This document shows positions 4,908 to 32,111 of a stretch of DNA of 64,000 bases, piece by piece (within the stretch, counting starts at the first letter, position 1; each line of letters begins with the position of its first letter). The stretch lies in NCBI GenBank assembly GCA_949841245.1, contig CATKYT010000001.1, forward strand, positions 10,906 through 74,905. The letters are read 5' to 3'. This DNA comes from an uncultured Eubacteriales bacterium. GTDB lineage: Bacteria; Bacillota; Clostridia; Christensenellales; UBA1242. A model generated the notes under the pieces. The model was given only the letters and a program-made list of their open reading frames with translations. It had not been told where the DNA came from and ran no database searches. Position numbers and translations under genes: made by a program.

Positions 4908-4921
4908 AAAGTCAAACTGAC

Positions 4922-5499: not shown

Positions 5500-5526
5500 T
5501 TAAATTTAACACAAACACAATAGTAT

Positions 5527-8783: not shown

Positions 8784-8794
8784 AAGAAAGAAAT

Positions 8795-8869: not shown

Positions 8870-8910
8870 AATTTTATTGAATTAACTTTTTAAAGGAGTG
8901 GTAAATTTAA

Positions 8911-9344
8911 ATGCAAGACGGTGTTATGATTATGTCCATCTTGACTTATTATGCCAAACAAATATTTGATGGAACTAAAAATTTTGAGTTTAGAAAAAGA
9001 CCGCTGAAAACTTCTGATTTAAATCGTGAATTTTTGTTTATTCTGCAAAGGATGACAAGTCGATTATAGGTTCTTTTAAGGTGAAAGAAATTTTGCATGG
9101 AAATACCACTGAAATTTTGAAGTTAACGGGTTATGATAAGAGAAATGACACATATGAAATAGTTGAATATTTTGGACAAGCAAACAAAAACTGCTATGCT
9201 TTAAGACTTTATGATGTTAAAAAGTTTAAAAATCCTGTTACATTGAATCAGTTAAGAAGTGTCAATCCAAAAGTGCAACTGCCACAATATTATTGTTATA
9301 TAAAAACAAACAACCCTTTATATTCACTTATCTGTAAAAATTAA
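8911..9344 (+). pseudogene. ASCH-domain protein gene interrupted by a 1-nt frameshift in a T-run near 9031..9040
   Basis: ATG 8911 with SD AAAGGAG gives MQDG..IFDGTKNFEFRKRPLKTSDLNREF and then a stop at 9066..9068. The other frame is open from 9030 and reads ..YSAKDDKSIIGSFKVKEILHGNT.. into listed ORF 9081..9344. Joined, the two parts resemble one ~140-aa ASCH protein. Confidence 0.6.
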
Positions 9345-9951: not shown

Positions 9952-10142
9952 AGAAAAGAAATAAGTTTTAAAGAGTTTTTTAAAAGTTGAAATGTATAAA
10001 GATTGTGGCTTATATGAAGAAATTTTCAAATTGCTTTCTGTCTGCAATAACTAAGTTGGTGAGTTGGTTTTCAAAAAACTTTCAAATTTGTGGTAAACAA
10101 CTTTAAAAAGTTTTTTCTTAGTGAAATAATAAAGTGAGAAAG

Positions 10143-10173
10143 AAAAAAAAGATTGCAAAGTGCAATCTTTTTT
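10143..10173. terminator. bidirectional terminator
   Basis: A-run, then stem agattgca / tgcaatct with loop aag, then T-run. Confidence 0.55.
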
Positions 10174-11086: not shown

Positions 11087-11212
11087 AAGTTTCTCCTTTT
11101 AATGAATTTCAGTGTTCGTTGCAACTTTTAAACATTCAGAAATTTTTAGTTTATAAATGTTTCGCAATTTTCAAACTATTTTAACATAATTTTATTGTTA
11201 ACAATTTTTAAT

Positions 11213-11677
11213 TTAAATTAACTCTTTTTGCCAATCAGAAATGTTAAATCTTGGATTAGCTGGACTTGTTGAAGAAAGATACACAATAGGAATAGTTGTA
11301 TTAAAATTTTCCATCAAAAGGTTGTAAGCAGTTTTTCCATTACAAATGATCTTTTCCACTTTGGTGTGGGGTGGCAGAAGAAAAGACATGTCTGCAATTT
11401 TCATTTGTGATTTTTCTAAATCCAAATCTGCTGAACCTTTAAGGTCACTTTCAAGCACGACATCATAAAGAGCGATGTTGTGTTTTAAAAGAAAACTCTT
11501 TTTGTTTTCAACATCTTCAGAAATATTTTCGTTGTAAATTTGAGAAAGCATTTTCCAAAAACGATTTTGTTTATGCCCATAATAAAAACCATTTTCGCGA
11601 CTTTTAACACTTGGAAAACTTCCAAGAATTAAAATGCGAGAATTTTTGTCATAAACTGGTTCAAATCCTTTAAACAT
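11213..11677 (-). CDS. DNA-deoxyinosine (hypoxanthine) glycosylase, UDG superfamily
   Basis: RILILGSFPSVKSRENGFYYGHKQNRFWKML and LSSTSPANP are hallmark segments of this family. Confidence 0.75.
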   Translation of the reverse strand: MFKGFEPVYDKNSRILILGSFPSVKSRENGFYYGHKQNRFWKMLSQIYNENISEDVENKKSFLLKHNIALYDVVLESDLKGSADLDLEKSQMKIADMSFLLPPHTKVEKIICNGKTAYNLLMENFNTTIPIVYLSSTSPANPRFNISDWQKELI

Positions 11678-11809
11678 AAAAACCTTCCGTAAATATATTC
11701 TAACATTAATTTAAAACTAAACAAAGTAATTGACAAGAAAATTTGTTGTTATTATAATGTTTAAAAATGGGGCAATAATAGGAAGAAGAACAAAATCTAA
11801 GGACGGAAT

Positions 11810-12154
11810 ATGAGTTATTTTAATGAAGTTTATGAAGTTGTGAAACAAATCCCGAAAGGCAAAGTGGCAACATACGGACAAATTGCCAAAATTCTTGGAA
11901 ATCCAAGACGGTCGCAAATTGTTGGTTATGCTTTACATGACAATCCAGATCCATCCACAATTCCATGTCACAGGGTGGTAAATCGTTTTGGCATGGTTTG
12001 CACAGGCTTTGCATTTGGTGGAGAAAAAGAGCAAAGAAAACTTTTGGAAGCGGAAGGAGTTGTATTTGAAAAGGATGGCACAATAGACTTAAAAAAACAT
12101 CAATGGAATCCCGAAGAAACTGGACTTACAGACATTGGCATTGATTTTGATTAA
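11810..12154 (+). CDS. MGMT-family protein (methylated-DNA-protein-cysteine methyltransferase DNA-binding domain only)
   Basis: VATYGQIAKILGNPRRSQIVGYAL and IPCHRVVN (PCHR active-site motif). Confidence 0.8.
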   Translation: MSYFNEVYEVVKQIPKGKVATYGQIAKILGNPRRSQIVGYALHDNPDPSTIPCHRVVNRFGMVCTGFAFGGEKEQRKLLEAEGVVFEKDGTIDLKKHQWNPEETGLTDIGIDFD

Positions 12155-12201
12155 AAAACAGGACAACAACTATAAATTTTGAAACCAACCAAAACTAAAA
12201 C

Positions 12202-12237
12202 AAAAAAATTACCACGACAAATGTCGTGGTTTAATTT
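12202..12237. terminator. rho-independent terminator
   Basis: Stem accacgac / gtcgtggt with loop aaat, flanked by A- and T-rich runs. Confidence 0.5.
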
Positions 12238-12238
12238 A

Positions 12239-13159
12239 TTATTTTTCAAAATTCTCGTAAACATTTTGCGTAGGGTTTTGTTTAATTATTTTTAATTTCT
12301 TAGATGCTTTCTTTCGAGTTTTTGAATCTTCTATTCTATGTGTTTTAATAATTCTTTTTATTATTTTTTCATCAATAGTAGAGTCTAACTCTAAATCTTT
12401 TTTATTTGTTTTTTGATAATATGGATTTTTAACTCCATCTCGAGATATCTCTCTGCCGTACTTATCTCTAACAATCTTAAATTTTCTGTCAAGAGCCGCA
12501 GGGTCTGTTTTCATAAGTTTTATATCTTCTTCAACTTCTTTTTGCATTGCTTCAAAGTCAATTGATTTTTTTAATTTAGCAATTTCTTCTTGAAGTTTCT
12601 CTCTATATATAACAGTTCCCATATAGTTTGAGTGTTCAATACAAGATTCAATTATAGGAAGTGTTGTAACAAGCGACCATTTTTCTTTTTCAAAATTAGA
12701 TGCAAGAATATCTTGAATCTCTTTATCTTGCATGCATTCTTCTTTTGTAAAAACATGATTAATCTTTGGCTTTTCAAACTCGTCAAAATATGTTTTTTCG
12801 TAAATAAGACTTGTTGATGTATCAACAACCCAAGTTTTACCATCACCAAACTCCTCTGTTTCTATGTAAGCATGTTCGGATTCTTCTTCACTATATCTAA
12901 TGCGTAAACTTTCAATATTTGCATGAACTATTTTGCAATCATCAAAAGCCAATTGCATTAACTTTGCTCTATCATAACAATGACCATTATTCATTTCGAT
13001 TATAAACAATAAAATAGATACCGGTAAACCACCAAAACTATACGGACGAAGATAGTCAAAAAGAACATCTGGAAAAACAAAAATTTTTCTTTCTTTAAAA
13101 CCTTTCATCAACCAGTTGGAGTGTTTTTGTTCTAACTCATCAATTTTAATTTCTTCCAC
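12239..13159 (-). CDS. hypothetical protein (N-terminal domain with ordered Cys..His..Asp candidates; Lys-rich C-terminal tail)
   Basis: 306-aa ORF. The NNGHCYDRAKL ... EHAYIE ... WVVDTS ordering resembles papain/transglutaminase-like folds. This is weak. Confidence 0.4.
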   Translation of the reverse strand: MEEIKIDELEQKHSNWLMKGFKERKIFVFPDVLFDYLRPYSFGGLPVSILLFIIEMNNGHCYDRAKLMQLAFDDCKIVHANIESLRIRYSEEESEHAYIETEEFGDGKTWVVDTSTSLIYEKTYFDEFEKPKINHVFTKEECMQDKEIQDILASNFEKEKWSLVTTLPIIESCIEHSNYMGTVIYREKLQEEIAKLKKSIDFEAMQKEVEEDIKLMKTDPAALDRKFKIVRDKYGREISRDGVKNPYYQKTNKKDLELDSTIDEKIIKRIIKTHRIEDSKTRKKASKKLKIIKQNPTQNVYENFEK

Positions 13160-13265
13160 TTATCCACCTCGACAAGATAGTTATAACATAAATTCTTTTT
13201 TATTGCAATACATTTAAATAAAGTTAATGTAAGTAAAAATTAGTCAAAAGAAATATTATCCAGTT

Positions 13266-13322
13266 GTTTTGTCTATGTTTTTCTTTAAATGATCAGCTAG
13301 TTTCAAAATTGAGTAACTAAAG
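13266..13322 (-). repeat. intergenic repeat family, copy C (3' of metK)
   Basis: The minus strand reads CTTTAGTTACTCAATTTTGAAACTAGCTGATCATTTAAAGAAAAACATAGACAAAAC. This is about four-fifths identical by eye to copy A. Confidence 0.6.
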
Positions 13323-13330
13323 TAATGTAT

Positions 13331-14419
13331 TTATTTATTAATTTTCTTTACTTGTTCCCAAGGGAAAGCAGGATTTCCGAAGTGACCATAACATGCTGTT
13401 TGTTTAAAGATTGGTCGAAAAAGTTGCAATTCTTTGATTATATTGTCAGGTGAGAAATCAAAATTTTTGTTTACTATTTCATATATTTTTTCCAAACTGA
13501 TTTTTTCTGTGCCAAAAGTTTCAATGCAAAGAGAGATAGGTTTTTCCATGCCAATGCCATAAGAAACTTCAATTTCACATTTGTCACAAAGTTTGTTGTA
13601 AACCAAATTTTTGGCAACATAGCGCGCATAATATGCACCAGAGCGGTCAACCTTTGTGGCATTTTTACTGGAAAAACATCCACCACCAACTTTGGCGATT
13701 CCACCATAGGTGTCTACAACAATTTTTCTTCCCACACAGCCACTGTCACCAAAACTGCCCCAAATTGTAAATTTTCCACTTGGATTAATGATGAATTTAG
13801 TTTCCTTTTTAACAAATTTTCTATATTCTTCCAAAACGACATCCACAACATTGGTTTGAATTTTGCTTTGCAAATTTTCGCAACCTTTTTTATGACTTGC
13901 GCTGATTAAAATTGTGTCTATGTAAAGGGGTTTATTGTCATCATAACAGAAAGAAACTTGACATTTGGCGTCAGCAAAAAATTCGTCTGTGGTTTGACGA
14001 TATTCTTCAAAGCGTTTCATAAGTTTATGTGCCATTGTAATTGTGAGTGGCATAAATTCTTTTGTTTCATTTGTGGCATAACCATAAACCATTCCTTGAT
14101 CATTGGCACAAAGTTTTTGCTTTACAACAGCTTGATTAATGTCTGGGCTTTGTTTGGAAATTTCTGTGACAATTTTAAATTTCTTTTTATATCCGATTTG
14201 TGTCAAAATTTCATTGGCAATTTTTTTCCAGTCAATTTTTGCCGTTGTGGTTGCTTCACCATAAACAAAAAGTTTGTTGTTTTTAATGGCACATTCGACA
14301 GCCATTTGTGCGTTGGCATCTTGTCTTAATGCTTCATCTAAAAAAGCGTCAGCAATTACATCACATGTTTTGTCTGGATGTCCAATGTTTACGCTTTCGC
14401 TTGTTAAAATTTTTTTCAT
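13331..14419 (-). CDS. metK: S-adenosylmethionine synthetase
   Basis: KILTSESVNIGHPDKTCDVIADAFLD and GGGCFSSKNATKVDRSGAYYARYVAKN. Start set at ATG 14419 with SD AAGGAGAAAAC. The listed 5' extension to 14494 overlaps the riboswitch terminator. Confidence 0.95.
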   Translation of the reverse strand: MKKILTSESVNIGHPDKTCDVIADAFLDEALRQDANAQMAVECAIKNNKLFVYGEATTTAKIDWKKIANEILTQIGYKKKFKIVTEISKQSPDINQAVVKQKLCANDQGMVYGYATNETKEFMPLTITMAHKLMKRFEEYRQTTDEFFADAKCQVSFCYDDNKPLYIDTILISASHKKGCENLQSKIQTNVVDVVLEEYRKFVKKETKFIINPSGKFTIWGSFGDSGCVGRKIVVDTYGGIAKVGGGCFSSKNATKVDRSGAYYARYVAKNLVYNKLCDKCEIEVSYGIGMEKPISLCIETFGTEKISLEKIYEIVNKNFDFSPDNIIKELQLFRPIFKQTACYGHFGNPAFPWEQVKKINK

Positions 14420-20529: not shown

Positions 20530-20559
20530 TTGCCTTTTTATTTTTCTTTTTGTTATAAT
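20530..20559 (+). promoter_or_regulatory. putative operon promoter TTGCCT-18-TGtTATAAT (extended -10)
   Basis: TTGCCT at 20530..20535, TG at 20551..20552, TATAAT at 20554..20559. SD AGGAG precedes ATG 20591. Confidence 0.4.
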
Positions 20560-20590: not shown

Positions 20591-21436
20591 ATGGAAAAAA
20601 CTATTACTTTTTCTGGAAGTAATGAAAAATTGTTTTCAAGATGTCTTTTGGAAAGTTTGGATGTTCGACAGACAATAATTGTTCCAGAAACACACAACGC
20701 CATTTTGGTTAAAGATGGGCAAATGTTGCAAACTTTGTCTTCTGGGAAATACAGATTGGATTCATTTGTTGACCAAAAAGAAGATGCTGGTTCAACTTTG
20801 GAAGTTCTGTTTATGTCAAAAACCGCAAAACTTAAACTTTTGTGGGGAACAGCACAAAGATTTACACTTTATGATTTTGTTTTGGATGAAGATTACCATG
20901 TCGGCATGAGCGGTGATTTTGAAGTTCAAATTGGCGACCCAAGAAAATGCTATCTTTATCTTGTCGGAGTGGCAGATGACTTGACAGCAGACGGATTGCA
21001 AGAAAGGTTGCAATCAAATGTTGTTTCCGTTTTGGAAGATGTCGTTATGCAATTTGCCGAAGCAAACAAAGTTTGTTTCAATCAACTTTCGCTTACCAAG
21101 AAAAAGGTTTCTGCCAAGGTTTTGACACAATTAAACCAAAAACTTATGAATGAATACGGAATTGCGGTTTTTTCTTTCAACATTGCAAACATTATAATAG
21201 AAGAAAATGATCACAAACGACTTTCGGCGCGTTTTAAAGAATTGAAAAACCCTAAAAGTCAAGAAAAGCCGGAAAATGGTTTCTTTTGCAAAGGATGTGG
21301 TCAAGCATTGGAAGAAGATGCCAAGTTCTGCCCATATTGTGGTAAGAAAGTTGGTGGAAACAAGTTGTGTCCAAATTGTCAAGCCGAAAATCCTGTTGGT
21401 GCAAAATTTTGCTCATCTTGCGGAAATAAATTATAG
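20591..21436 (+). CDS. SPFH-fold protein of the YdjI type fused to C-terminal double zinc ribbon
   Basis: NAILVKDGQMLQTLSSGKYRL, VLFMSKTAKLKLLWGT, FEVQIGDPRKCYLYLVG and EYGIAVFSFNIANIIIEE parallel my recollection of B. subtilis YdjI. The C-terminus has CKGCG..CPYCG and CPNCQ..CSSCG. Confidence 0.65.
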   Translation: MEKTITFSGSNEKLFSRCLLESLDVRQTIIVPETHNAILVKDGQMLQTLSSGKYRLDSFVDQKEDAGSTLEVLFMSKTAKLKLLWGTAQRFTLYDFVLDEDYHVGMSGDFEVQIGDPRKCYLYLVGVADDLTADGLQERLQSNVVSVLEDVVMQFAEANKVCFNQLSLTKKKVSAKVLTQLNQKLMNEYGIAVFSFNIANIIIEENDHKRLSARFKELKNPKSQEKPENGFFCKGCGQALEEDAKFCPYCGKKVGGNKLCPNCQAENPVGAKFCSSCGNKL

Positions 21437-21447
21437 GAGGAAAAATT

Positions 21448-21867
21448 ATGTTGGCATTTTTAATAGTTATTTTAATTTTAATTTTGGGTGTTTCTGCCTT
21501 TTACATCTGGAAAGAATATTTTTATAAGGGCGACAGAAAGAAAGGTGAAAAACTTGACATAGGTGGTCGTGGTGTAATGAAAAACAAAAAAGCCATTGAA
21601 AGCATGGTGGCAAATGTGGAAAGTATTATTGTTTATGCAAACGGAAACGACACTCTTTGTAATCGTTTGGTGGAAGTTAAGGACAACATCAGATTTTTTA
21701 ACCCAACAACAAATCAAAAGGCTTTGGCAGTTGACGCCAAACTTTCAGCCAAACTTGATGACCTTAAAATTGCAGTAGCAAAAGACAACACACAGGAAAC
21801 ATGTTTCAGATTGTTGGAAGAAGTTGAAGCATATATTGTTCAACGCAAAAAGGAAGAACAGGCTTAA
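21448..21867 (+). CDS. single-pass membrane protein with cytoplasmic helical domain
   Basis: N-terminal TM helix (LAFLIVILILILGVSAFYIW) and strong SD AGGAGG. The stop overlaps the next start (TAATG). Confidence 0.55.
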   Translation: MLAFLIVILILILGVSAFYIWKEYFYKGDRKKGEKLDIGGRGVMKNKKAIESMVANVESIIVYANGNDTLCNRLVEVKDNIRFFNPTTNQKALAVDAKLSAKLDDLKIAVAKDNTQETCFRLLEEVEAYIVQRKKEEQA

Positions 21868-22220
21868 TGAAAAGAACCTATCAAGTTTCAGCCGATGTGG
21901 CAGAGAAAGAAAAAGCGTTAAAGGAACTTAATCTTGGATATTTGAATTTGGAAGACAGGATGTTTGAACAAGCAAAACTCAGTTTTGAAATTGTGTTGCA
22001 ATTTGACCCTAAGTGTGCGGATGCCTATTGGGGTTTGATGCTTACAAAATTTCAATTATCAAACGAAAATGATTTGACAGACAACGCCATTCTTTATAAA
22101 ACGGCAATATATTTGCCAGAATATGAAAACGCAATGAATTATGCTGACAAAAACCAGAAAAAACGATTTGAAGATATGCTGGAAAACATACATAAAATCA
22201 ATGCTGGCGACAATTTTTAA
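21867..22220 (+). CDS. small TPR-like helical-repeat protein
   Basis: FEQAKLSFEIVLQFDPKCADAYWGLMLTKFQL is TPR-like. The same motif type recurs in 24646..28437. Confidence 0.5.
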   Translation: MKRTYQVSADVAEKEKALKELNLGYLNLEDRMFEQAKLSFEIVLQFDPKCADAYWGLMLTKFQLSNENDLTDNAILYKTAIYLPEYENAMNYADKNQKKRFEDMLENIHKINAGDNF

Positions 22221-22232
22221 AAAGGAGCGACT

Positions 22233-22862
22233 ATGTGGTTACCATTTAAGAGAAATAAATTTAAAAAACTAAACAGAGAAGACCTTGTTAATTCCATCTG
22301 CGAATTAGAAAGACAGGAAAGAACAGTGGAAGCGGAAGTTTTTCAAAAGTTGAAAGAAATTGACGCTTTAAAAGAAAAAGGTAAGAAAGAAAAGAATAAA
22401 GAACTTCAACTTTTCTACGCAAAAAAAATTAGTCATTTAAACGAAGAAAAACAAACTTGCATGGAAAGGGGAATGTATTTGCTTTACAACATTCGTCTTA
22501 TGAATAAACTTAAAGATGCTTATGACAGCAACACTTTCTTCAAAACACAAACAAAAGTTCCACTCAGCGAACTTTTGAAAGACCAAACAGGATTGGCGAA
22601 GTTTTTAAATAAGGCTTTACAAACCAGAATTAAGTCAGAAGATGTTTTGACAAGTGCAGATGACTTGTTTGCCGAAGTGCAAGCGGCTTATGATGTCAGC
22701 GAGCCTATTTATGGAGTTGGAAAGCAAGAAGAAGAACTTTTAAGCATGTTTGAACAAGAAGACCAACTCAGTGATGAGCGTGAGTTATATCAAGCACAAG
22801 AAGATTATGAAGAACCTGCAAAGGAAACTATAAAAAAGAAAAAAGCGAAATTGGAGGAGTAA
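22233..22862 (+). CDS. ESCRT-III/Snf7-superfamily-like protein (Snf7/Vps20-like paralogue)
   Basis: Basic N-terminal helical hairpin (..KGKKEKNKELQLFYAKKISHLNEEKQTCMERGMYLLYNI..) and an acidic C-terminal third. The layout parallels Snf7/CHMP6 as I recall them. SD AAGGAG is present. Confidence 0.5.
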   Translation: MWLPFKRNKFKKLNREDLVNSICELERQERTVEAEVFQKLKEIDALKEKGKKEKNKELQLFYAKKISHLNEEKQTCMERGMYLLYNIRLMNKLKDAYDSNTFFKTQTKVPLSELLKDQTGLAKFLNKALQTRIKSEDVLTSADDLFAEVQAAYDVSEPIYGVGKQEEELLSMFEQEDQLSDERELYQAQEDYEEPAKETIKKKKAKLEE

Positions 22863-22865
22863 AAA

Positions 22866-23462
22866 ATGGGACTTTTTAAATCTAAGGAAGAAAAGGCAAT
22901 TGAAAAAAAGATGTTGATTAAAAGAACAATCAACTCAATGAACAAACAAATCAACAAACTTGAAGCACAAAAACAAGTGTTTGTTGATGCGGCAAAAAAG
23001 GCAAAGCAAAAAGATTTGGATGCTCAGTATAATTTGGCACTTTCTGGTTATAAGATGACTGTTCAACAACAAAAACGCGCACAAGAAATGCTTTTAAATT
23101 TTGAAATTACAGCACAAATGAAAGATGTAACTATGATGACTGCTGAATTTTTGCATGGTATGAGTGACATCAGCAAAGAGATGACCAAATTTGCAGATGC
23201 CAAAGAATTTGCCAAAATTCAAAATCAATTCGAGCAAGCAATGGCTGCTGTTGAAACTCAGGCTGACCAAATGGATAATTTCATGGAAATGAGCCAAGAA
23301 ACTTTCTATAATCAAGGAAAGGCAAGAGATGGCAAAGAGATGTCTGATGAAGAATTTGAAAAGTTTATTGAAGAACAAGCAAGCCAAGATGAAATGTCAT
23401 CTGAATCAATTGATAAAGAAATGGAAGAACTTAGAAAGAAAATTGAATCTGACATGAACTAA
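22866..23462 (+). CDS. ESCRT-III-like protein (Vps24/CHMP3-Vps2 class)
   Basis: Compare MGLFKSKEEK...VDAAKKAKQKD with recalled CHMP3 MGLFGKTQEK...VKDAAKKGQKD. Also SKEMTKFADAKEFAKIQNQFEQAMAAVETQADQMDNFME. The N-terminal half is basic and the C-terminal half acidic, ending in an amphipathic helix IDKEMEELRKKIESDMN. Confidence 0.7.
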   Translation: MGLFKSKEEKAIEKKMLIKRTINSMNKQINKLEAQKQVFVDAAKKAKQKDLDAQYNLALSGYKMTVQQQKRAQEMLLNFEITAQMKDVTMMTAEFLHGMSDISKEMTKFADAKEFAKIQNQFEQAMAAVETQADQMDNFMEMSQETFYNQGKARDGKEMSDEEFEKFIEEQASQDEMSSESIDKEMEELRKKIESDMN

Positions 23463-23480
23463 ATAAAAGGATTTTTGCCA

Positions 23481-24635
23481 ATGAATGATAAAAATACAAG
23501 CATAAGTGTTTTGTCTGACAAATTTGACCTTTACATGAAAAAAGGCAAACAGGCAAAAGAACAAGGAAACATCGCACTTGCCAAAAGAAATTTTTTGCTG
23601 GCAAGCGAAGTTATGATGCAAATGGCTAAGCAAAGTCAAGGAAAACTTAAAGAAGTGCGAATGGACAGAGCGCGCCGATTGGTGGAACTTACTGACAATT
23701 TAAACAAGAAACCTATTAAAGTGGAAAAAAGCGAAAAACCAAAAGGCGAAAACAATAACTCAGAAGAAGATGAAGATGTAAAAAAATGGCAAACCGCAGA
23801 AGTGCCAAAAATCAGTTTCAGTGATGTTGCTGGGCTTGACGATGTTAAGAAAGCCATTACAATTCGAATGATTAATCCGATTAAATATCCTGACAAATAC
23901 AAAATGTATGGCAAGAAAACAGGCGGTGGAGTGCTTTTATATGGCCCGCCTGGAACTGGTAAAACCATGATAGCAAAAGCCATTGCCAATGAAGTTGGTG
24001 CAAAGTTTTACGCCATAAAAGGTTCTGATATAGTCAGCAAATGGGTTGGCGACAGCGAAAAGAACATCAATTCACTTTTCCAAGAAGCCAACAAACAAGA
24101 CAGAGCAATCATCTTTATTGATGAAATGGACAGTTTGATTGGCAAGCGTGGTGTTGACACACACAACGACAAGCGTGTCAACGAATTTTTGCAACAAATT
24201 GATGGTGTTTCTGGAAGAAATCAAAATTTACTTCTTCTTGGTGCAACCAACAGACCATGGGATATTGACAGTGCAGCAATGCGTTCTGGAAGATTTTCTC
24301 AAAAAATCTATCTTCCATTGCCAGATGCACCAGCCAGAAAATTTATGATTGAAAAGGCACTTAAAGGTGTGCCAGTTGACAAAGATTTTGATGTCAACAG
24401 AGTTGTGGAACAAACTGAACTTTACAGTGGTGCGGACATAGAAGAATTGTGTGACCGTGCAAAGGACGAACCACTTTTGAAGTCAATCGCCACAGACAGT
24501 GTCGTTTTGGTGACTAATTCCGACTTTGACAAAGTGTTGGAAGTTTTGCCACCAAGCGTGACTATGAAAGAATTGAAAGAATTTGAAGACTATAATAATG
24601 AAGTTTCAAGTTACATAAAGAAACCTAAAAAATAA
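23481..24635 (+). CDS. MIT-domain AAA+ ATPase, Vps4/CdvC-like
   Basis: N-terminal three-helix segment (KKGKQAKEQGNIALAKRNFLLASEVMMQMAK..RARRLVELTDNL). Walker A GPPGTGKT, pore loop SDIVSKWVGDSEK, Walker B IIFIDEMDSL, and ATNRPWDIDSAAMRSGRF. Start set at ATG 23481, 9 nt after AAAGGA. Confidence 0.8.
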   Translation: MNDKNTSISVLSDKFDLYMKKGKQAKEQGNIALAKRNFLLASEVMMQMAKQSQGKLKEVRMDRARRLVELTDNLNKKPIKVEKSEKPKGENNNSEEDEDVKKWQTAEVPKISFSDVAGLDDVKKAITIRMINPIKYPDKYKMYGKKTGGGVLLYGPPGTGKTMIAKAIANEVGAKFYAIKGSDIVSKWVGDSEKNINSLFQEANKQDRAIIFIDEMDSLIGKRGVDTHNDKRVNEFLQQIDGVSGRNQNLLLLGATNRPWDIDSAAMRSGRFSQKIYLPLPDAPARKFMIEKALKGVPVDKDFDVNRVVEQTELYSGADIEELCDRAKDEPLLKSIATDSVVLVTNSDFDKVLEVLPPSVTMKELKEFEDYNNEVSSYIKKPKK

Positions 24636-24645
24636 CGGAGAATTT

Positions 24646-27600
24646 GTGAAAGAGCGTGTTTGTAAAAATTGTGGGGGCAGACAATATAAAGTTGTTGGGC
24701 AAAACATGGTTAAATGTATGTTTTGTGGGACTCTCTATGTGGACGAACAGGCTTCAAAGGAAGAAGAAGTTTTAATTGTTGGTGCAAACGAAAAACTTCG
24801 AGACCTTAAATTTAAAGAAGCAGTTGATGAATTTAACAAAATTCTTTTGCTGTTTCCTTTTTCTTTTGCTGGTTTCTATGGCAGAGCGCTTGCCACAAAC
24901 AAAATTGTGCTTTATTCCAACAACAAAAACATGTCAAAAAGGCCACGCTTTTTTGGTGAAGACATTTCTTCACTTTCAAAAAACAGTGACTTTAAGCGTG
25001 CAGTGGAACTGGCTCCTGCTGAAACAGCAAAAACTTATAATGCTCTTGCAAAGCGGGTGGACAAAATTAGAACTGCTTACAGAGAGATTAAGGAAAAAGT
25101 TGATGTCATTTTAAGTGCTGTTGACAACAATAGATTGCAGAATGTTCTTTCTGATGTAGTCGATAAACTTAACGAACATAAATTTAAAAGTTATGTTATG
25201 CCTGACAACAATGAATTAGAAGAAGTTACATTCAATGCACTTCAAAGAGCAAAAGTTTTGCTTTTGTTTGTGACGGACAGCAATATAAACAGCACATTTA
25301 GAAGTGTTTATGAAAGATATTTATATTTCATTTCACAAAGAAAGAAAACAAAAACAAGTTTAATTTTAATTGCCGACCAATCAAATTTGGATATGTCAAG
25401 GTTGCCGATTGAACTTCAATCTTGCAAAAACATTTTGGATTTGAATTCAGACACATTGCTTTTTGACATTCAAGTTATGGTTGGCGAAGAAATGCGAAAA
25501 TCAGCATCAGAAATTGCCAAAATTGACACAATAAAAGTTGATAAAGTTCAACCTAAAAAGAAAAAATACATAGCCACTGAAACAATTAATCCGCTTGAAC
25601 TTGGGCATTACCATGTGGATAATGTAGAAATCACAGAAGAAGGCAAAATTAAATGGATTTATTTGTCATTGAAAAATGGTGACTTTGCCACAGCAGAAGA
25701 AGTTTTGGTGACTGAGTTGGAAAATGATGCCAACAATGCCGAACTTTTACTTGCCCAACTTATGATTTCAAGACAAGTCAAAACAAAAGAAGAATTTTTT
25801 GATAATATTTCCAATTTCAAAAACACAGAAGAAATTGACAGAATTTTGCAATTTGCATCCAAAGGTTTTGCCGAAGAATTTGTGGACAGCATGGAAAATC
25901 TTGTTATTAAATTGCATGATGTAAGTTATTACAACACTTTTCTTTTATACCTTGCAAAATACAACAGCCCAAACCGTCAAAACTTTATTGACAGTGCCAA
26001 AGTTTTGGCTGTGGAAACCATGAATGAAGAACTGATTGAAAAGGTTTTAAGGTGTTTCAAAAAGTCTGATGTTGATGGGATTGTGCAGTTTTATTTTGAT
26101 TTGGCCCAGAAAAGCGACAACAAAAAATATTATGAAAAAATTTTGGAAATTGACGAAGGTCATGCAGAAAGCAACTATGCGGCTTTGTTTGAACACTTTA
26201 AAACGGTTAAAGAATTGCTTACCTACCAAAACCGAAACGAATTGGAAGCGGTGTTTAAATTTTTAAATGGCTCACAACGCGATGAGTTTATTTCCAGACT
26301 TATCAATATGATTATGGAAGTGGCATTTATTGACCTTGAAAAATGTCAAACACAAATTGATTTCTATTTGTCATATGTTTCAGATAATAAACGATTGGTT
26401 GCCATTTTAAAATCAATTGTGCAGAGATTTTTGCATTTAGAATTTTTCACACAAGCGGAGAAATATATTTCCATTGCCATCAACAAAGATAAGAAGAATG
26501 CAGAGTTGTTTTGGTTTTTAATTTTGGCTAAGGCACATTGCCGTAAAGAACAAGAACTTATTACTTCAAATGTAAAAATAACTCAACTGCCAGAATGGTC
26601 AACATTGTTGACACTTGCCAATGAACAGCAATCTGAAAAATATGCTGGAATTGTCAGCAAAATGAATTTGTTTAAAGGTTCCAAAAAAGAATTTAAAGAA
26701 GATGCTTTGGACAAAGCCCAATACATTTCAAAGACAAATGAATTTTTGGACAGGAATTACAAAATTCTGTTGGAAATGGAAAAACAAGAAGGCACTTCTG
26801 TGTTGCGTGGTGTGAATTATTATCGCTTGCAACTTCAACCTTTTGAAGAATATGTCAAGTTGCTGGAAAACATAAATAAATATGATGAATTCATCGATGT
26901 TGTTTTAAGAATAGAAGACAGACTTAAAAATTTGGACTTAACTTTTGAAGCATCTATAAATGTCACAAATTTGTTGGATAAAGAAAAATATTTAAATAAA
27001 GCGCTTGGCGAATATGATGATGTAAGGGAAGAAAAACACAGAAAAAAAATTAAAGATATAAGAAAAGATGTCTTTTTAAAACATTTTTTACTTAGTTTCT
27101 TGGTTTATTTTCCTGCACTTTTTACCACTGTGCTTTTAATTACGACTTTGTCTGCCCCAAAAGAAGTTTACATGAATTTCAGTTACAACTTCTTGGTTTG
27201 CACGCTTATTTATTCTGTTGCGGTGGCAATTATAAGTTTGATTTATTTCATTGTAAAAAAACATAAATCATCATTTAAACTGAAAGTCATGAATTTAAGT
27301 CTAATGGGTATTGGACTTGCGAATGTAATTTTGTTGCTTCTTGGTTTTTATGCTTTTCCTGTAAAAATGCAAATCAATAACTTGGAAGAATTCAACACTT
27401 TGATTCACAATGCCAGCCATGCTTCATTTGTTTTGCAACAAGATTTAGACATGTCTAATGTTTTATGGGACAGTGTAAATTTTACAGGCACATTAGATGG
27501 AAATGGCAAAACATTAAAAAATGTCAAATTCTTAAAAAACAGCAATGGTCTTTTTGCAACAAACTCTGGAACTATTAAAAATTTGAATGTCATTTTGTCC

Positions 27601-28437
27601 CATGAATTATATAATAATCCCAACCTTTTTGGCACAATTGCAGGCACAAATGTCGGCACAATCGAAAGATGTTCAGTTTCCGGCAAAATTAATTTTGAGT
27701 GCAACATTAATGCAGTGATTGGTGGCATTGTTGGAAATTTAAAAGGTGGAAAGATTTACAACTGTAAATCAAATCTTACTGTTGGAATTTCAGTAAATTC
27801 CGGTGATGTTATTTTCGGCGGAGTGGCAGGAAAAATTGTTGAAGGGAAAAAGACTTCAGAAATTAAAAAGACTTCTGTTGAAACTTTAACATTAAATTTG
27901 ACAGCAAACAATGCAAAAGTTTTAAATGCAGGTGGACTGGTTGGTTATGTTGAAAGTTTTGCTGAGAAAAAATTTGCCGTGGATTCAAACAATGTTGTCA
28001 TCGAAGCACACGCAAATGGTAATGCAGAAACATTATCGTTTGGTGGACTGGTTGGCTATGGTGAACTTGGTGCGTCCAACAACTATACTGTTGGAGAGAT
28101 TAATGTCAGTCAACTTGGTGGTGAAAGGTGTGTTGGTGGGCTTTATGGAAAATTGATTGTGGATTCTGACAAAATCAACAAAACAAAAATTATCTCATCA
28201 TATTCAACTGTTGACATAAATTCAGATGATGATTATTCCGAAGTCGGAAGTCTGGTCGGCAGACTTGGCGGAGAAATGGAAAACTGTTTTTCAAGTTCTT
28301 CATTGAATGTGTTTGGAAACAGAGTTGGATTTGGTTCTGCCAAAAACTGTGATAACAAAAAGTTGTTTTATGAAAACAAATATAAATTTGACGAAAACAT
28401 TTGGGATTTAACTGGTAATTTTCCAATTTTAAAATAA
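24646..28437 (+). CDS. multidomain membrane protein: cytoplasmic zinc ribbon plus helical (TPR-like) repeats, three TM helices, extracellular GLUG-type domain
   Basis: GTG start 5 nt after GGAG. Zinc ribbon CKNCGG..CMFCG. Three hydrophobic helices encoded at about nt 27080..27365. C-terminal FTGTLDGNGKTLKNV, GGIVGNL, GGLVGYV, FGGLVGYG, VGGLYGKL and VGSLVGRL repeats. Confidence 0.65.
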   Translation: MKERVCKNCGGRQYKVVGQNMVKCMFCGTLYVDEQASKEEEVLIVGANEKLRDLKFKEAVDEFNKILLLFPFSFAGFYGRALATNKIVLYSNNKNMSKRPRFFGEDISSLSKNSDFKRAVELAPAETAKTYNALAKRVDKIRTAYREIKEKVDVILSAVDNNRLQNVLSDVVDKLNEHKFKSYVMPDNNELEEVTFNALQRAKVLLLFVTDSNINSTFRSVYERYLYFISQRKKTKTSLILIADQSNLDMSRLPIELQSCKNILDLNSDTLLFDIQVMVGEEMRKSASEIAKIDTIKVDKVQPKKKKYIATETINPLELGHYHVDNVEITEEGKIKWIYLSLKNGDFATAEEVLVTELENDANNAELLLAQLMISRQVKTKEEFFDNISNFKNTEEIDRILQFASKGFAEEFVDSMENLVIKLHDVSYYNTFLLYLAKYNSPNRQNFIDSAKVLAVETMNEELIEKVLRCFKKSDVDGIVQFYFDLAQKSDNKKYYEKILEIDEGHAESNYAALFEHFKTVKELLTYQNRNELEAVFKFLNGSQRDEFISRLINMIMEVAFIDLEKCQTQIDFYLSYVSDNKRLVAILKSIVQRFLHLEFFTQAEKYISIAINKDKKNAELFWFLILAKAHCRKEQELITSNVKITQLPEWSTLLTLANEQQSEKYAGIVSKMNLFKGSKKEFKEDALDKAQYISKTNEFLDRNYKILLEMEKQEGTSVLRGVNYYRLQLQPFEEYVKLLENINKYDEFIDVVLRIEDRLKNLDLTFEASINVTNLLDKEKYLNKALGEYDDVREEKHRKKIKDIRKDVFLKHFLLSFLVYFPALFTTVLLITTLSAPKEVYMNFSYNFLVCTLIYSVAVAIISLIYFIVKKHKSSFKLKVMNLSLMGIGLANVILLLLGFYAFPVKMQINNLEEFNTLIHNASHASFVLQQDLDMSNVLWDSVNFTGTLDGNGKTLKNVKFLKNSNGLFATNSGTIKNLNVILSHELYNNPNLFGTIAGTNVGTIERCSVSGKINFECNINAVIGGIVGNLKGGKIYNCKSNLTVGISVNSGDVIFGGVAGKIVEGKKTSEIKKTSVETLTLNLTANNAKVLNAGGLVGYVESFAEKKFAVDSNNVVIEAHANGNAETLSFGGLVGYGELGASNNYTVGEINVSQLGGERCVGGLYGKLIVDSDKINKTKIISSYSTVDINSDDDYSEVGSLVGRLGGEMENCFSSSSLNVFGNRVGFGSAKNCDNKKLFYENKYKFDENIWDLTGNFPILK

Positions 28438-28597
28438 AGTTTTTACAAAAAAAATAAAATGAAAAAGGTTCTTTCAAGAACTTTTTTTCATATATAAATA
28501 AGATTGCAAAATTTTTGATCCAACAAATGAAATTAGTTGACTTATCAACTTTTTGTGTGATAAAATCAGTTTACTTTATGAATTAAGCGAGGTGACA

Positions 28598-30337
28598 ATG
28601 TTTAAATTACTTAAAAATTTTAAATGGCAAGATTATTGCTTTTTGCTTGTTGTTATTGGTCTTGTCGTTTTGCAAGTTTGGCTGGATTTAAGAATGCCAG
28701 AATATTTGGGAAGCATCATTGGCGAACTTCAAAAATCTCAGTTTGGATTGGAAGTTGACATCAACACCATTTTAATCAATGGTGGTTACATGTTGGCTTG
28801 TGCTGTTGGAAGTTTGGTGTCAATGATTATAAACGGTTTTTTGATTTCCAATATTTCTTCTCGATTTGCTTTCAACATCAGACAAAAAGTTTATGACAAA
28901 GTTCAGGGTTTCTCTTTGGCTGAAATAAGCAAGTTTTCCACTGCAAGTTTAATTACAAGAACGACCAACGACATTACACAAGTTCAAATGGTCATTGTAA
29001 TGGGCATGCAAGCATTGTTTAAAGCCCCAATCTTGGCAGTTTGGTCTATTTTAAAAATTTTAAACATATCCACTGCTTGGTCTGCTGCGGTAGGTGTGGC
29101 AGTGTTGACACTTATTGTTATGATTGCAATCATCGTTATTTTAGCAATGCCAATGTTTAAAAAAATTCAAACTTTAACAGATGACATCAACCGTGTCACA
29201 AGAGAACACTTGACAGGAATCCGAGTTATTCGTGCTTCCAATGCGGAAGAATATCAAGAAGAAAAATTTGCTAAGTATAACAACAATTTGACAAAAGCAT
29301 ATTTGTTTACTGGAAGGGTTATGAGTGTTTTAGGGCCAGGAATGACAATTATTATGTCAGGGCTGAGCCTTGCAATTTATTGGATTGGTGCTTACATTGT
29401 CAAGACACCAACAGATTTTGCCAACATGATGACTTTCACAACCTATGCAATGAATGTGCTTATGGCATTTATGCTTTTAATTATGATTTTCATTCTTATG
29501 CCAAGAGCGATTGTTTCGGCAAAAAGAATAAACGAAGTTTTGGACACACAAAACATGATCGTTTCAGGACAGTATGTAGATGAAAATTTAAACAGCACAG
29601 CATCAGTTGTTTTTAAAAATGTTTCTTTCAAATATCCAGATGCAGAAGAATATGTTTTGGAAAACATCTCTTTTGAAGCACATGATGGCGAAACTGTGGC
29701 TTTTATTGGTTCAACAGGAAGCGGAAAAAGCACATTAATCAATTTAATTCCAAGGCTCTATGATTGCACAGAAGGCGAGATTTTGATTGATGGTGTAAAT
29801 GTAAAAGATTATGACCTTGAAAATTTAAACAAAAAAATTGGATATGTTCCACAACGCGGTGTTTTGTTCAGTGGAACAGTAAAGTCCAACATCGACTTTG
29901 GCGATAACAATGCCGATGATGAAACAATTAAAAAAGCAATCAGTGTGGCTCAGGCAACCAACTTTGTTTCCCGCATGAGTGACGGAATTGACAGCAAAAT
30001 TTCTCAGGGTGGAACAAATGTTTCTGGTGGTCAAAAACAAAGACTTTCAATTGCTCGTGCTATTGCAAGAAAACCAGAAATTTTCATATTTGACGACAGT
30101 TTCTCTGCACTTGACTATAAAACAGACAGAAAACTTAGAACAGCACTTACTAAACACACAAACAAAGCAACTAAGTTTATTGTCGCTCAAAGAATTGGCA
30201 CAATTAAAGATGCTGACAAGATTATTGTTTTAGACAATGGAAAAGTCGTGGGGATTGGCAAGCATGATGAACTTTTGAAAAAATGTTCTGTTTACAAAGA
30301 AATTGCCTTGTCGCAACTCTCTAAGGAGGAATTGTAA
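28598..30337 (+). CDS. ABC exporter, fused permease/ATPase subunit 1 of a heterodimer
   Basis: Six-TM domain, then GSTGSGKST, VSGGQKQRLSIARA and IFIFDDSFSALD. Start set at ATG 28598 after SD GAGGTGA. Confidence 0.9.
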   Translation: MFKLLKNFKWQDYCFLLVVIGLVVLQVWLDLRMPEYLGSIIGELQKSQFGLEVDINTILINGGYMLACAVGSLVSMIINGFLISNISSRFAFNIRQKVYDKVQGFSLAEISKFSTASLITRTTNDITQVQMVIVMGMQALFKAPILAVWSILKILNISTAWSAAVGVAVLTLIVMIAIIVILAMPMFKKIQTLTDDINRVTREHLTGIRVIRASNAEEYQEEKFAKYNNNLTKAYLFTGRVMSVLGPGMTIIMSGLSLAIYWIGAYIVKTPTDFANMMTFTTYAMNVLMAFMLLIMIFILMPRAIVSAKRINEVLDTQNMIVSGQYVDENLNSTASVVFKNVSFKYPDAEEYVLENISFEAHDGETVAFIGSTGSGKSTLINLIPRLYDCTEGEILIDGVNVKDYDLENLNKKIGYVPQRGVLFSGTVKSNIDFGDNNADDETIKKAISVAQATNFVSRMSDGIDSKISQGGTNVSGGQKQRLSIARAIARKPEIFIFDDSFSALDYKTDRKLRTALTKHTNKATKFIVAQRIGTIKDADKIIVLDNGKVVGIGKHDELLKKCSVYKEIALSQLSKEEL

Positions 30338-30338
30338 G

Positions 30339-32111
30339 ATGGCAAGAAAATTTTCAGTTAAACAAAAAGAAACAAAAGGGACTTTCAAATCTTCCATGGG
30401 AAAACTTTTTAGATATTGTCGCTTTCAAATGTGGCCACTGATTTTGTCAATGATTTTTGGTGTCATTGGTGTGGCTTGTCAAATTGTTGGACCAAATTTA
30501 ATTGGTGATGTAACAGATTACATTCAAGAAGGCTTGATGGGTGCTGATGTCATTAAACAAATTTCTGACCTTTGCTTCATCTTGGTTGCAATTTACATTT
30601 CAATGGCAGTTTTGCAATATTTGCAACATTACATCATGAACAATGTGACACAAAATGTAACAAGAAGATTCAGAACAGACATTTCCAAAAAAATCAATCG
30701 TCTGCCATTAAACTATTTTGACACTCATCTTCATGGAGATGTGTTAAGTCGTGTTACAAACGATGTTGACACACTTGGTCAAAGCATGAATGAAAGCATT
30801 GCAAATTTACTTTCAAATGTAATTTTGTTTATTGGTGTGCTTATAATGATGTTTGTTACACAATGGATAATGGCATTGACTGTAATTGCAACAACAATAA
30901 TTGGATTTGCTTTTGCCAGCATATTCTTACTTCGTGCACAAAAATATTTTGACCAAAATCAAAAGAACTTGGCTGACATCAATGCTCATGTTGAAGAAGT
31001 TTATTCAGGCCACAATGTTGTTCAACTTTTCAACGGAAAAGAAACTCAATCACAAGAGTTCGCAAAAATCAACAGAAAGTTGTTTTTCAGTGGTTGGAAA
31101 TCACAATTCATTTCAGGTGTAATGATGCCAGTTATGAGTTTTGCAGGAAACTTAGGTTATGTTGCTGTTTGCGTGGTTGGCGCTGTGCTTATTGCAAAAC
31201 AAGGGCTTGGTTATGGCGTAATTGCTTCATTTATGATTTATGTCAGATTATTCTCTAATCCACTTGCTCAGATTGCACAAAGTTTAACAAGGCTTCAATC
31301 TACTTCTGCCGCAGCAAATCGTGTGTTTGAGTTTTTGGAAAGCAACGAGCTTGAAAATCCCGTTTTAAAAGTGGAAGATGTTAAAGGTAATGTTCAATTT
31401 GACCATGTCAAGTTTGGGTATAATGAAGACAAGATTATTATTAAAGATTTTTCAGCCAAAATAAAGGCTGGGCAAAAAGTGGCAATTGTTGGACCAACTG
31501 GTGCAGGAAAAACCACACTTGTCAATTTGTTAATGCGTTTCTATGAAATCAATTCTGGTGACATAAGGATTGACGGAATTCCAACCAGACATTTAACTCG
31601 CGAAAATGTGCATGCGTTGTTTGGAATGGTTTTGCAAGACACATGGCTTTTTGAAGGAACAATCAAAGAAAACTTGCGTTACAACAACGAAAATGTAACT
31701 GACGAACAAATTTACAATGCATGTAAACAGGTGGGTGTTGACCACTTTATTCAAACATTGTCTAAGGGTTATGACACAGTGATTGATGATGCCATCAATT
31801 TGTCTGCTGGTCAAAAACAACTTCTTACCATTGCCAGAACAATGATTCAAGACAGACCGATGCTTATTTTGGATGAAGCGACAAGTTCGGTTGACACCAG
31901 AACAGAAATTCTTTTGCAAAAAGCAATGGATAAGGCAATGGAAGGACGCACATCTTTCATCATTGCACACAGACTTTCCACAATCAAAAATGCTGACATG
32001 ATTTTGGTGCTTAAAGATGGCGACATCATTGAAAATGGAACACATAACCAACTTTTGAAAAAGGGCGGTTTCTATGCCGAACTTTACAACAGTCAGTTTG
32101 AAGAAAAATAA
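30339..32111 (+). CDS. ABC exporter, fused permease/ATPase subunit 2 of a heterodimer
   Basis: GPTGAGKTT, LSAGQKQLLTIART and MLILDEATSSVD. Start is ATG 30339, right after the upstream stop, with SD AAGGAGG. Confidence 0.9.
   Translation: MARKFSVKQKETKGTFKSSMGKLFRYCRFQMWPLILSMIFGVIGVACQIVGPNLIGDVTDYIQEGLMGADVIKQISDLCFILVAIYISMAVLQYLQHYIMNNVTQNVTRRFRTDISKKINRLPLNYFDTHLHGDVLSRVTNDVDTLGQSMNESIANLLSNVILFIGVLIMMFVTQWIMALTVIATTIIGFAFASIFLLRAQKYFDQNQKNLADINAHVEEVYSGHNVVQLFNGKETQSQEFAKINRKLFFSGWKSQFISGVMMPVMSFAGNLGYVAVCVVGAVLIAKQGLGYGVIASFMIYVRLFSNPLAQIAQSLTRLQSTSAAANRVFEFLESNELENPVLKVEDVKGNVQFDHVKFGYNEDKIIIKDFSAKIKAGQKVAIVGPTGAGKTTLVNLLMRFYEINSGDIRIDGIPTRHLTRENVHALFGMVLQDTWLFEGTIKENLRYNNENVTDEQIYNACKQVGVDHFIQTLSKGYDTVIDDAINLSAGQKQLLTIARTMIQDRPMLILDEATSSVDTRTEILLQKAMDKAMEGRTSFIIAHRLSTIKNADMILVLKDGDIIENGTHNQLLKKGGFYAELYNSQFEEK

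Follow-up and report, generated by a model that had tools for sequence, protein, structure and literature searches.

A candidate ESCRT-III protein of the Snf7/CHMP family encoded beside an AAA ATPase in an uncultured Eubacteriales bacterium

[quoted passage not shown] Snf7-type proteins are regarded as archaeal/eukaryotic, with PspA/Vipp1 in bacteria (Liu et al. 2021), and a 2025 review states that a Vps4-like ATPase 'appears absent in bacteria'. The question of whether a bacterium can also encode such a pair is raised by a 64,000 nt-long stretch of DNA from an uncultured Eubacteriales bacterium (contig CATKYT010000001.1, positions 10,906 to 74,905 of the forward strand), which, in its whole length, we call the window. 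At positions 22866-23462 (+) of the window there is a complete open reading frame (ORF), from ATG to stop, with a GGAGG ribosome-binding site 9-13 nt upstream, which encodes a protein of 198 amino acids (aa); the next gene on the same strand encodes an AAA ATPase. An initial annotation, made from the sequence letters, had read the 198-aa protein as CHMP3/Vps24-like. We consider this ORF as probably encoding a bacterial member of the Snf7/CHMP family (ESCRT-III proper) in a conserved operon, and this operon as the probable counterpart of the archaeal/eukaryotic ESCRT-III-Vps4 module.

Family membership and predicted fold of the 198-aa protein

Judged from its relatives, the gene is no chance ORF, because a search of a set of 5.8 billion proteins gave 508 homologues, a HMMER search of 1.84 billion cluster representatives gave 357 relatives (clusters at 50% identity), and the close orthologues have a mean column identity of 87%.

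We considered as the family profile an alignment (A2) of 94 diverse full-length relatives, with a mean column identity of 24%. This diversity was needed, because a profile built from 38 close orthologues, which share 79-92% identity with the 198-aa protein, did not match any PDB chain. With the 94-sequence profile, the best natural match in PDB was human CHMP2A (E 2.1e-6), and it was colinear, residues 8-150 of the family being aligned to residues 5-143 of CHMP2A (143 residues). The matches that followed were CHMP1B, CHMP3 (chains with E 0.07-8), Vps24 (E 2.2), Sulfolobus CdvB and CHMP1A; no chain of PspA or Vipp1 was found in this search. The other natural proteins matched were few and weak (prefoldin, a TBPIP-family protein, ClpC and an insecticidal protein, all with E > 0.05). 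When the 94 members were scanned singly against Pfam, Snf7 (PF03357) was matched by 16 of them, with a best value of 1.4e-9, any other Pfam family by at most one, and PspA_IM30 (PF04012) by none at E <= 0.01. One relative, P0267, reached exactly the gathering score of PF03357 (27.3 bits), and a precomputed PF03357 annotation is present on more distant family members. The search with Snf7-family profiles that the initial annotation had proposed thus came out positive at the level of the family.

On these profiles, together with the predicted fold given below, we place the 198-aa protein in the Snf7/CHMP family, broadly understood, with the Vps2/24/46-like class as its nearest relative. Regarding the claim of the initial annotation, the family assignment stood and the subgroup did not: the closest solved relative is CHMP2A, which is of the Vps2 type, and not CHMP3/Vps24 specifically. 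We rejected membership in the CHMP3/Vps24 orthologous group in consideration of the E-values of CHMP3 and Vps24 reported above, and of the lack of any BLASTP match to CHMP3 described below.

A model of the 198-aa protein, obtained by AlphaFold from the 94-sequence alignment, had a mean predicted local distance difference test (pLDDT) value of 82.1 and predicted helices at residues 7-48, 52-107, 113-152 and 161-197, with pLDDT 86-97 over residues 1-70 and above 90 across most of residues 11-70. The predicted order of the helices is that of ESCRT-III, i.e. a long hairpin followed by alpha4 and by alpha5/6, and the alpha1-alpha2 hairpin that the initial annotation had suggested looking for is therefore present in the model. 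Precisely, the alpha1-alpha2/3 hairpin (residues 7-48 and 52-107; 22884-23186, +) is basic, carries the tip motif AAKKAKQKDLDAQYNLALSGYK and a residue, A46, that is nearly invariant in the family alignment, and is aligned by profile to the CHMP2A hairpin. A model obtained from a shallow alignment had pLDDT 65, and its Foldseek list was uninformative.

The segments that had been quoted for the 198-aa protein (MGLFKSKEEK, VDAAKKAKQKD, a middle segment and the C-terminal IDKEMEELRKKIESDMN) are all present in the translation. The basic core and acidic tail that had been claimed for it are borne out as well, residues 1-110 having a net charge of +7 (pI 9.6) and residues 111-198 a net charge of -15 (pI 4.15); the same pattern runs across the 94 relatives, with a median net charge of +9 in the N-terminal part and -12 in the C-terminal part.

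Three motifs at the two ends of the protein are conserved in the family. The first is the N-terminal MGLFKSKEEK (residues 1-10; 22866-22895, +), with column counts, among the 94 members, of M 83, L 42, F 62, K 69, K 55 plus R 16, and K 72 plus R 15; more distant members start with MGLFGKRK or MDLFGIKKRK. The second is DEEFEKFI (residues 161-168; 23346-23369, +), whose family consensus is D-E-E-I-D-K-L-I (D in 74/94, E in 69, I in 64, L in 54, I in 64) and which we take to resemble the alpha5 motif of ESCRT-III, e.g. EMEIDRIL in CHMP3. The third is a C-terminal amphipathic helix, SESIDKEMEELRKKI (residues 179-193; 23400-23444, +), similar to the type 1 MIT-interacting motif (MIM1). The consensus of this helix over the 94 members, D179-x-x-I182-x-x-(K/R)185-L186-x-x-L189-(K/R/E)190-K-K-L, fits the MIM1 pattern (D/E)xxLxxRLxxL(K/R), and in some members, such as P0202 (DEDIERRLQEIR), the match is exact except for I in place of L. 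The tail of the 198-aa protein retains the three hydrophobic positions (I182, M186 and L189) and R190. As for the N-terminus, in ESCRT-III the helix alpha0 is a membrane-binding element (review PMC7619361), and MGLFKSK, which resembles it, is a candidate for the same role by analogy with that literature.

Several results weigh against the reading of this protein and of its neighbour as an ESCRT-III-Vps4 pair, and those relative to the 198-aa protein are the following. Its sequence alone had no significant match in Pfam, NCBIfam or PDB, and BLASTP against human CHMP3, in a sequence entered by hand, found nothing (E = 10). Since single sequence, BLASTP and the 38-orthologue profile were all null, the impression of a direct CHMP3 resemblance rests on short motifs; the resemblance, which had been called unexpectedly direct, is weaker than that and is significant at the profile level only. 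Foldseek with the model against PDB gave 13 ESCRT-III superfamily members among the top 15 matches (Vipp1, at the top, CHMP2A/CHMP3, CHMP1B, CdvB, Loki CHMP4-7 and Asgard ESCRT-IIIB), with E-values of 0.3-3, none of them significant, and we considered the composition of this list as qualitative support. Non-significant Foldseek E-values are usual for extended helical proteins with several conformations. In the terminal helix, S179 and E185 replace the acidic and Arg positions of MIM1, and the wording of the initial annotation, MIM1-like but not perfect, described it accurately.

The null BLASTP result would also be expected if a charged, helical protein with coiled coils resembled ESCRT-III by chance; helical proteins draw spurious matches, and designed helical repeats were among the matches of the profile search. 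Chance does not account easily for a colinear CHMP2A match of this length and E-value, for later natural matches that are ESCRT-III save for the few weak ones, or for many members that match Snf7 independently. A contig from an archaeal or eukaryotic contaminant is opposed by the conservation of the operon in dozens of species genomes assembled from bacterial metagenomes, and by the window itself, which is bacterial chromosomal DNA encoding DnaB, BipA, S-adenosylmethionine synthetase and pyruvate formate-lyase. We considered chance and contamination, even together, as very improbable.

The adjacent AAA ATPase and the gene pair in other genomes

The gene downstream (23475-24635, +) encodes a 386-aa ATPase that we describe, by Pfam, NCBIfam, profiles and motifs, as an MIT-like N-domain (about residues 9-75), a charged linker, a single classical AAA domain and a C-terminal helix. 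Walker A is at residue 157, the pore loop is SKWVG and the second region of homology (SRH) is ATNRPWDIDSAAMRSGRF; Pfam gave AAA with 146 bits, plus AAA_lid_3. Its length and architecture are CdvC-like, without a beta-domain, because the NCBIfam CdvC model spans it in full length (12-375 aligned to 6-366 of 370).

The 75-residue N-domain alone had no match in Pfam or PDB, and a first profile of it had a single weak PDB match, the MIT domain 2mpk (E 0.25). The final profile, made of 16 sequences including divergent orthologues from other loci (alignment A7), matched 2w2u (E 5.1e-4), 2mpk (E 1.5e-3) and 2v6y (E 0.23), which we take to be the MIT domain of S. acidocaldarius CdvC, an MIT domain and the MIT domain of S. 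solfataricus Vps4, respectively. MIT was also the top Pfam match for two divergent orthologues of the ATPase (E 1e-3 and 3e-3), and hhalign of the N-domain with MIT scored 26, reversed controls scoring 15-17. The MIT-like nature of the N-domain is moderately supported by these sequence comparisons. Along with the fit of the family's terminal helix to MIM1, it gives indirect support to the proposed binding of the tail to the ATPase.

The remaining points on the opposite side concern this ATPase. The two Pfam MIT matches just mentioned are under the gathering score, and the probability in the hhalign comparison with four Vps4/CdvC MIT sequences, entered by hand, was only 51%. Vps4_C scored 19.4 bits, under the 21.3 cut-off. 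The CdvC score, 211.8 bits (cut-off 650), is about the same as that of CDC48, 213.9 bits (D2 part), and both are far below the cut-offs. The C-terminal 98 residues matched p97/Cdc48 D2, AFG2, fidgetin-like 1 and katanin, and no Vps4 was among the 60 matches listed. Finally, the SRH is RxGRF, Cdc48-like, and not the RRF/SRF of Vps4. On account of the equal CdvC and CDC48 scores, of Vps4_C and of the C-terminus, we rejected a specific Vps4/CdvC affiliation; the sequence does not demonstrate orthology of the ATPase to Vps4.

For synteny we considered a sample of 80 loci of GTDB species representatives, retrieved with a 22-sequence alignment of the family and 57-99% identical to the 198-aa protein. 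The 99% identity was that of locus L001, on contig CATLAM010000005.1 of an uncultured Eubacteriales gut metagenome-assembled genome (here and below, L numbers denote loci and P numbers family members). Close relatives carry the labels Clostridia, Candidatus Caccovivens, Christensenella and Coproplasma, Caccovivens being placed in Bacillota/Clostridia. The operon is syntenic in dozens of Christensenellales-like species genomes (80 loci). Throughout the Caccovivens-like group the conserved order of its genes is SPFH, 139-aa transmembrane (TM), 117-aa TPR-like, 209-aa, 198-aa, ATPase and 1263-aa, and Christensenella-like and Coproplasma-like genomes retain the core of SPFH, 209-aa, 198-aa and ATPase, in some cases with additional DNA inserted ahead of the ATPase. 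The extra DNA between the 198-aa-type gene and the ATPase, found in several species, is 0.5-4 kb long: in L004, L005 and L007 the ATPase is at 7548 and not at about 6610, in L023 and L027 it is at about 7120, and other such loci are L056, L059, L064, L066, L068, L070, L072, L074 and L077-L079.

At 27-40% identity, a module formed by a helical protein of about 200-237 aa, a family member and an AAA ATPase with the same N-domain still persists. In L086 two clear family paralogues stand in tandem, and in L081 and L087 the same N-domain is on an AAA ATPase of a different (CbbX/SpoVK-like) class, still beside a family member. Because the N-domain, on different AAA classes, always adjoins a family member, these loci suggest that it is the element recognising the Snf7-like protein.

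A search with distant members found the Snf7-like family also in Planctomycetota and Candidatus Sumerlaeota, where the module of helical protein, Snf7-like protein and ATPase recurs. Two distinct MIT-type AAA ATPases flank the Snf7-like gene there and in related loci (L089, 5606-10507; L090, 5587-8694; L091, 5693-8759; L088, 2324-4887). The first is the orthologue of the ATPase of our operon (38-42% identity, SKWVGES, RPGRF). The second is Vps4-like (SKYFGES, SRF, C-terminal W) and its N-domain looks more canonically MIT-like. The Christensenellales operon retains only the SKWVGES/RPGRF type. The Planctomycetota/Sumerlaeota loci also encode FHA domains, Ser/Thr kinases and Band_7 proteins that carry double zinc ribbons, the kinase/FHA genes being at 7758-9299 and 13448-14597 in L089 and at 1565-5500 and 8954-12961 in L090. 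Band_7 with zinc ribbons occurs in the systems of both L085 and L090. In L085, Band_7_1 is upstream, and a Zn-ribbon/TPR-like/TIR_2/FHA protein, a PP2C and a Ser/Thr kinase are downstream (9981-14163). These kinase, phosphatase and FHA themes echo reports on archaeal ESCRT loci.

Some Snf7-like family members are the N-terminal domains of much longer fusion proteins, in which the partner is either a winged-helix, RuvB-like AAA+ ATPase, to which a NERD nuclease domain is added in some cases, or an FtsK/SpoIIIE-type ATPase (P0177, P0185, P0193, P0198, P0253, P0267 and P0178, P0179, P0182, P0186). In L081 (8001-9668) a family fusion lies beside another AAA ATPase carrying an MIT-like N-domain.

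Such fusions, and the effector-like company of the module in L085 together with the kinases and FHA domains of L089 and L090, would fit an operon serving conflict, defence or signalling, in which the Snf7-like protein would be a coiled-coil adaptor or sensor for AAA ATPases and for effectors such as TIR or NERD; the ATPase, in addition, gives generic matches to IetA models. We considered this as quite unlikely. PADLOC on the operon reported the ATPase only, with generic models (IetA, TRIP13), found no system and was null for the other six operon proteins; the IetA score of 133 bits corresponds to generic AAA similarity, and NCBIfam IteA scored 114 against a cut-off of 510. There is no TIR or nuclease gene in the operon of the window, whose fixed chromosomal synteny in dozens of species and surroundings-like GC content are unlike a variable defence island, and kinase and FHA genes accompany archaeal ESCRT loci too.

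The operon, its possible mechanism and its surroundings

The 198-aa gene belongs to a run of closely spaced same-strand genes (20591-28437), which are separated by -1 to 12 nt. A candidate sigma-70-type promoter, TTGCCT-18-TATAAT with a TG extension, was found by consensus scan at 20530-20559 (+), 31 nt upstream of the first gene. This gene (20591-21436, +) encodes a 281-aa SPFH protein with two C-terminal zinc ribbons (Pfam Band_7_1, 50.4 bits with a cut-off of 24; Zn_Ribbon_1, 53 bits; DZR, 41.9 bits), a YdjI-like candidate for a membrane platform or recruiter, and is kept upstream of the 198-aa gene in most of the 80 loci. The second gene (21448-21867, +), conserved in Caccovivens-type loci, encodes a 139-aa protein with one N-terminal TM helix (residues 2-20, by hydropathy scan) and a helical part predicted to be cytoplasmic; the third (21867-22220, +), whose start overlaps the preceding stop by 1 nt, encodes a 117-aa helical protein that reads as TPR-like. 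Neither of the two proteins had a family match in Pfam scans.

At the downstream end, 24646-28437 (+) encodes a 1263-aa membrane protein for which Pfam, a TM scan and the sequence indicate an N-terminal zinc ribbon, about 800 aa of TPR-like repeats, three TM helices (809-904) and an extracytoplasmic GLUG region; its gene is kept downstream of the ATPase in Caccovivens-type loci (32-85% identity). The motif '...DP..A.AYWGL...' is common to the 117-aa protein and to the N-terminal region of the 1263-aa protein. A module that recurs, and that has no Pfam match, consists of a zinc ribbon and, after it, a pair of TPR-like helices with the signature '...DP..(F/A).A.(F/Y)(W/Y)GL...'; it is found in the 117-aa protein (21867-22220), several times in the cytoplasmic portion of the 1263-aa protein (24646 to about 27000) and N-terminally in the TIR/FHA protein of L085 (9981-10400). 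No ESCRT-I or ESCRT-II genes were found in the operon by Pfam and NCBIfam scans, nor were CdvA, wH/ESCRT-II-like or adaptin-appendage proteins detected.

Directly upstream of the 198-aa gene, 22233-22862 (+) encodes a 209-aa all-helical protein, with the N-terminus MWLPFKRNKF, a basic N-terminus and an acidic tail. Alone, as a profile or through single divergent homologues, it had no match to Snf7 or to ESCRT-III in PDB, its HMMER scores against the 198-aa family were no better than those of shuffled sequences, and a database search with it returned close orthologues only. Profile-profile comparison with the 198-aa family aligned 164 columns colinearly (E 1.6e-3, probability 16%) and, after adding the equivalent proteins from other phyla, 151 columns (E 4.9e-5, probability 68%), with scores of 27-37 and reversed controls at 12-16. 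A gene of similar size is always just upstream of the module in the loci examined, and in L086 its slot is filled by a clear paralogue of the 198-aa protein. From these sequence comparisons we give a little better than even chances to the 209-aa protein being a second, very divergent, ESCRT-III-like subunit.

From these features and by analogy with CHMP/Vps4 and CdvB/CdvC we infer how the operon may work. With its basic alpha1-alpha2 hairpin and MGLFKSK N-terminus, the 198-aa protein would attach to the cytoplasmic membrane on its inner side and form polymers there, in which the 209-aa protein may take part. The SPFH/zinc-ribbon protein, whose role is proposed by analogy with YdjI and PspA, and the 1263-aa membrane protein would position the 198-aa protein. 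The acidic tail would expose the MIM1-like terminal helix and so recruit the MIT-like N-domain of the ATPase, which would extract subunits at the expense of ATP, the polymer being thereby remodelled or disassembled. In the cell, the system would probably serve membrane repair or remodelling, or a late step of membrane scission, such as division or vesicle release.

The head of the operon also fits a protein that works like PspA/Vipp1, i.e. a stress-induced, membrane-stabilising coat recruited by a YdjI-like SPFH protein, with the ATPase acting as a regulator or on other substrates. In B. subtilis, PspA is brought to the membrane by YdjI (cited in PMC10936438), which the Band_7_1 and zinc-ribbon protein resembles; Vipp1 was the top Foldseek match and the ATPase is not clearly Vps4. 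The profiles point the other way, with Snf7 in 16 of the 94 members versus PspA_IM30 in none and with ESCRT-III matches in PDB that are all CHMP, Vps24 or CdvB; moreover, the conserved MIM1-like helix, the MIT-like N-domain and the fixed adjacency of this N-domain across ATPase classes argue for direct coupling. We considered a PspA-like mode of action as unlikely, the likeness of the 198-aa protein to PspA/Vipp1 being at the fold level only, and we retain ESCRT-III proper as the preferred reading.

As to the surroundings, GC content is about 0.31-0.35 throughout the window, operon included. We rejected a recent horizontal acquisition of the operon, its GC content being equal to that of its surroundings, and a phage or mobile-element origin, its syntenic context being fixed. 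Directly downstream of the operon, two genes for MsbA-like ABC exporter half-transporters (28553-32111, +) overlap by 35 nt and keep their synteny with it in the majority of Caccovivens-type loci. To judge from a 115-nt gap and a promoter-like site (28537-28566), they may form a transcription unit of their own. Elsewhere in the window, a giant ORF of 3796 aa (38981-50371, +) and one of 1115 aa (66-3413, +) had no Pfam match at E <= 1e-5; a PLD-type (cardiolipin-synthase-like) protein of two domains is encoded after the latter, at 3425-4870. A TraG/VirD4-type coupling protein of type IV secretion (6692-8668, -) adjoins a tRNA-Arg(TCG) (8795-8869, +), and the two may be the remnant or the edge of an integrated conjugative element.

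Comparison with known ESCRT-III systems

The kind of system is known and parts of it have been glimpsed before in bacteria; an operon with a soluble Snf7-type subunit and an MIT-like AAA ATPase, in Bacillota and other phyla, is undescribed in the literature that could be searched, in which bacterial Vps4, Snf7 or CdvB, looked for as phrases, gave no paper. One may go further and suppose a genuine, ancient bacterial ESCRT-III/Vps4 machinery, built from Snf7-type subunits and MIT-AAA ATPases (one or two of each), from an SPFH platform and from kinase/FHA regulators, and inherited across Bacillota, Planctomycetota and Sumerlaeota; this we put forward tentatively, as a possibility that we doubt. 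If it is true, the coupling of ESCRT-III with an MIT-AAA disassemblase would be no archaeal invention, and would either predate the split between bacteria and archaea or derive from early inter-domain exchange, and in Christensenellales the machinery could serve membrane scission, e.g. in division, vesicle release or repair. A bacterial Snf7-type/MIT-like AAA operon in more than one phylum would reopen the timing of ATP-driven ESCRT-III remodelling. The system is small, has few soluble proteins and occurs in gut bacteria with cultivable relatives (Christensenella), so that a minimal ESCRT-III/Vps4 mechanism would be directly testable; it also raises the question of the purpose of such a system in abundant gut Clostridia.

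PspA/Vipp1 (IM30), with SPFH proteins of the YdjI type, shares with the present operon the ESCRT-III superfamily fold, the bacterial host and an SPFH Band_7_1 protein with zinc ribbons in the operon. It differs in that the predicted hairpin of the 198-aa protein has Snf7-like dimensions (alpha1 of about 42 residues), in that PspA_IM30 is not matched by the family, and in that the present operon has a MIM1-like tail and an adjacent MIT-like AAA ATPase, both of which, according to reviews, are missing from PspA systems.

As for eukaryotic ESCRT-III of the A type (Vps2/CHMP2A, Vps24/CHMP3, Did2/CHMP1B), the likeness regards the size, the MxLF(G/K)K-type N-terminus, the basic hairpin with a KKxAKxG... 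tip, the acidic C-terminal half, the alpha5-like D-E-E-I-D-x-L-I motif and the terminal, amphipathic, MIM1-like helix. The differences are a pairwise identity of about 12-18%, undetectable without a profile, the bacterial host, and the conserved acidic and Arg positions that the MIM1-like helix of the 198-aa protein does not have.

In the archaeal Cdv and euryarchaeal ESCRT loci ('Main', 'Halo_FHA' and 'Meth_adaptin'; PMC10936438), as in the present operon, one or more ESCRT-III genes are directly upstream of an ATPase of about 370 aa with MIT and a single AAA domain and without a beta-domain. The accessory genes are of the same kinds as those found here and in relatives, i.e. SPFH with coiled coil and zinc ribbons, Ser/Thr kinases, phosphatases and FHA; SPFH with zinc ribbons, kinases and FHA are accessory genes of archaeal ESCRT loci according to Makarova et al. 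2024 (PMC10936438). The N-domain profile of the bacterial ATPase has its best match in the MIT domain of Sulfolobus CdvC (2w2u), whereas the whole ATPase scores no better against CdvC than against Cdc48 D2. CdvB uses a MIM2-type motif and a winged helix, in place of which the bacterial family has a MIM1-like helix.

Among bacteria, Ravi et al. 2024 (PMC11237479) described VPS4-like MIT+AAA ATPases beside a protein with TPR and six TM helices, with snf7 'displaced' and Firmicutes not listed; in one candidate phylum they also reported a double-AAA ATPase accompanied by a divergent Snf7 that is anchored in the membrane. The ATPase with SKYFGES, SRF and C-terminal W of the Planctomycetota/Sumerlaeota loci is probably of the type that they described. 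Their system and ours have in common a bacterial ATPase with an MIT-like domain and a classical AAA domain that adjoins a large TPR-plus-TM protein (here of 1263 aa), and differ in the Snf7-family gene, which in our case exists, and is conserved, right next to the ATPase.

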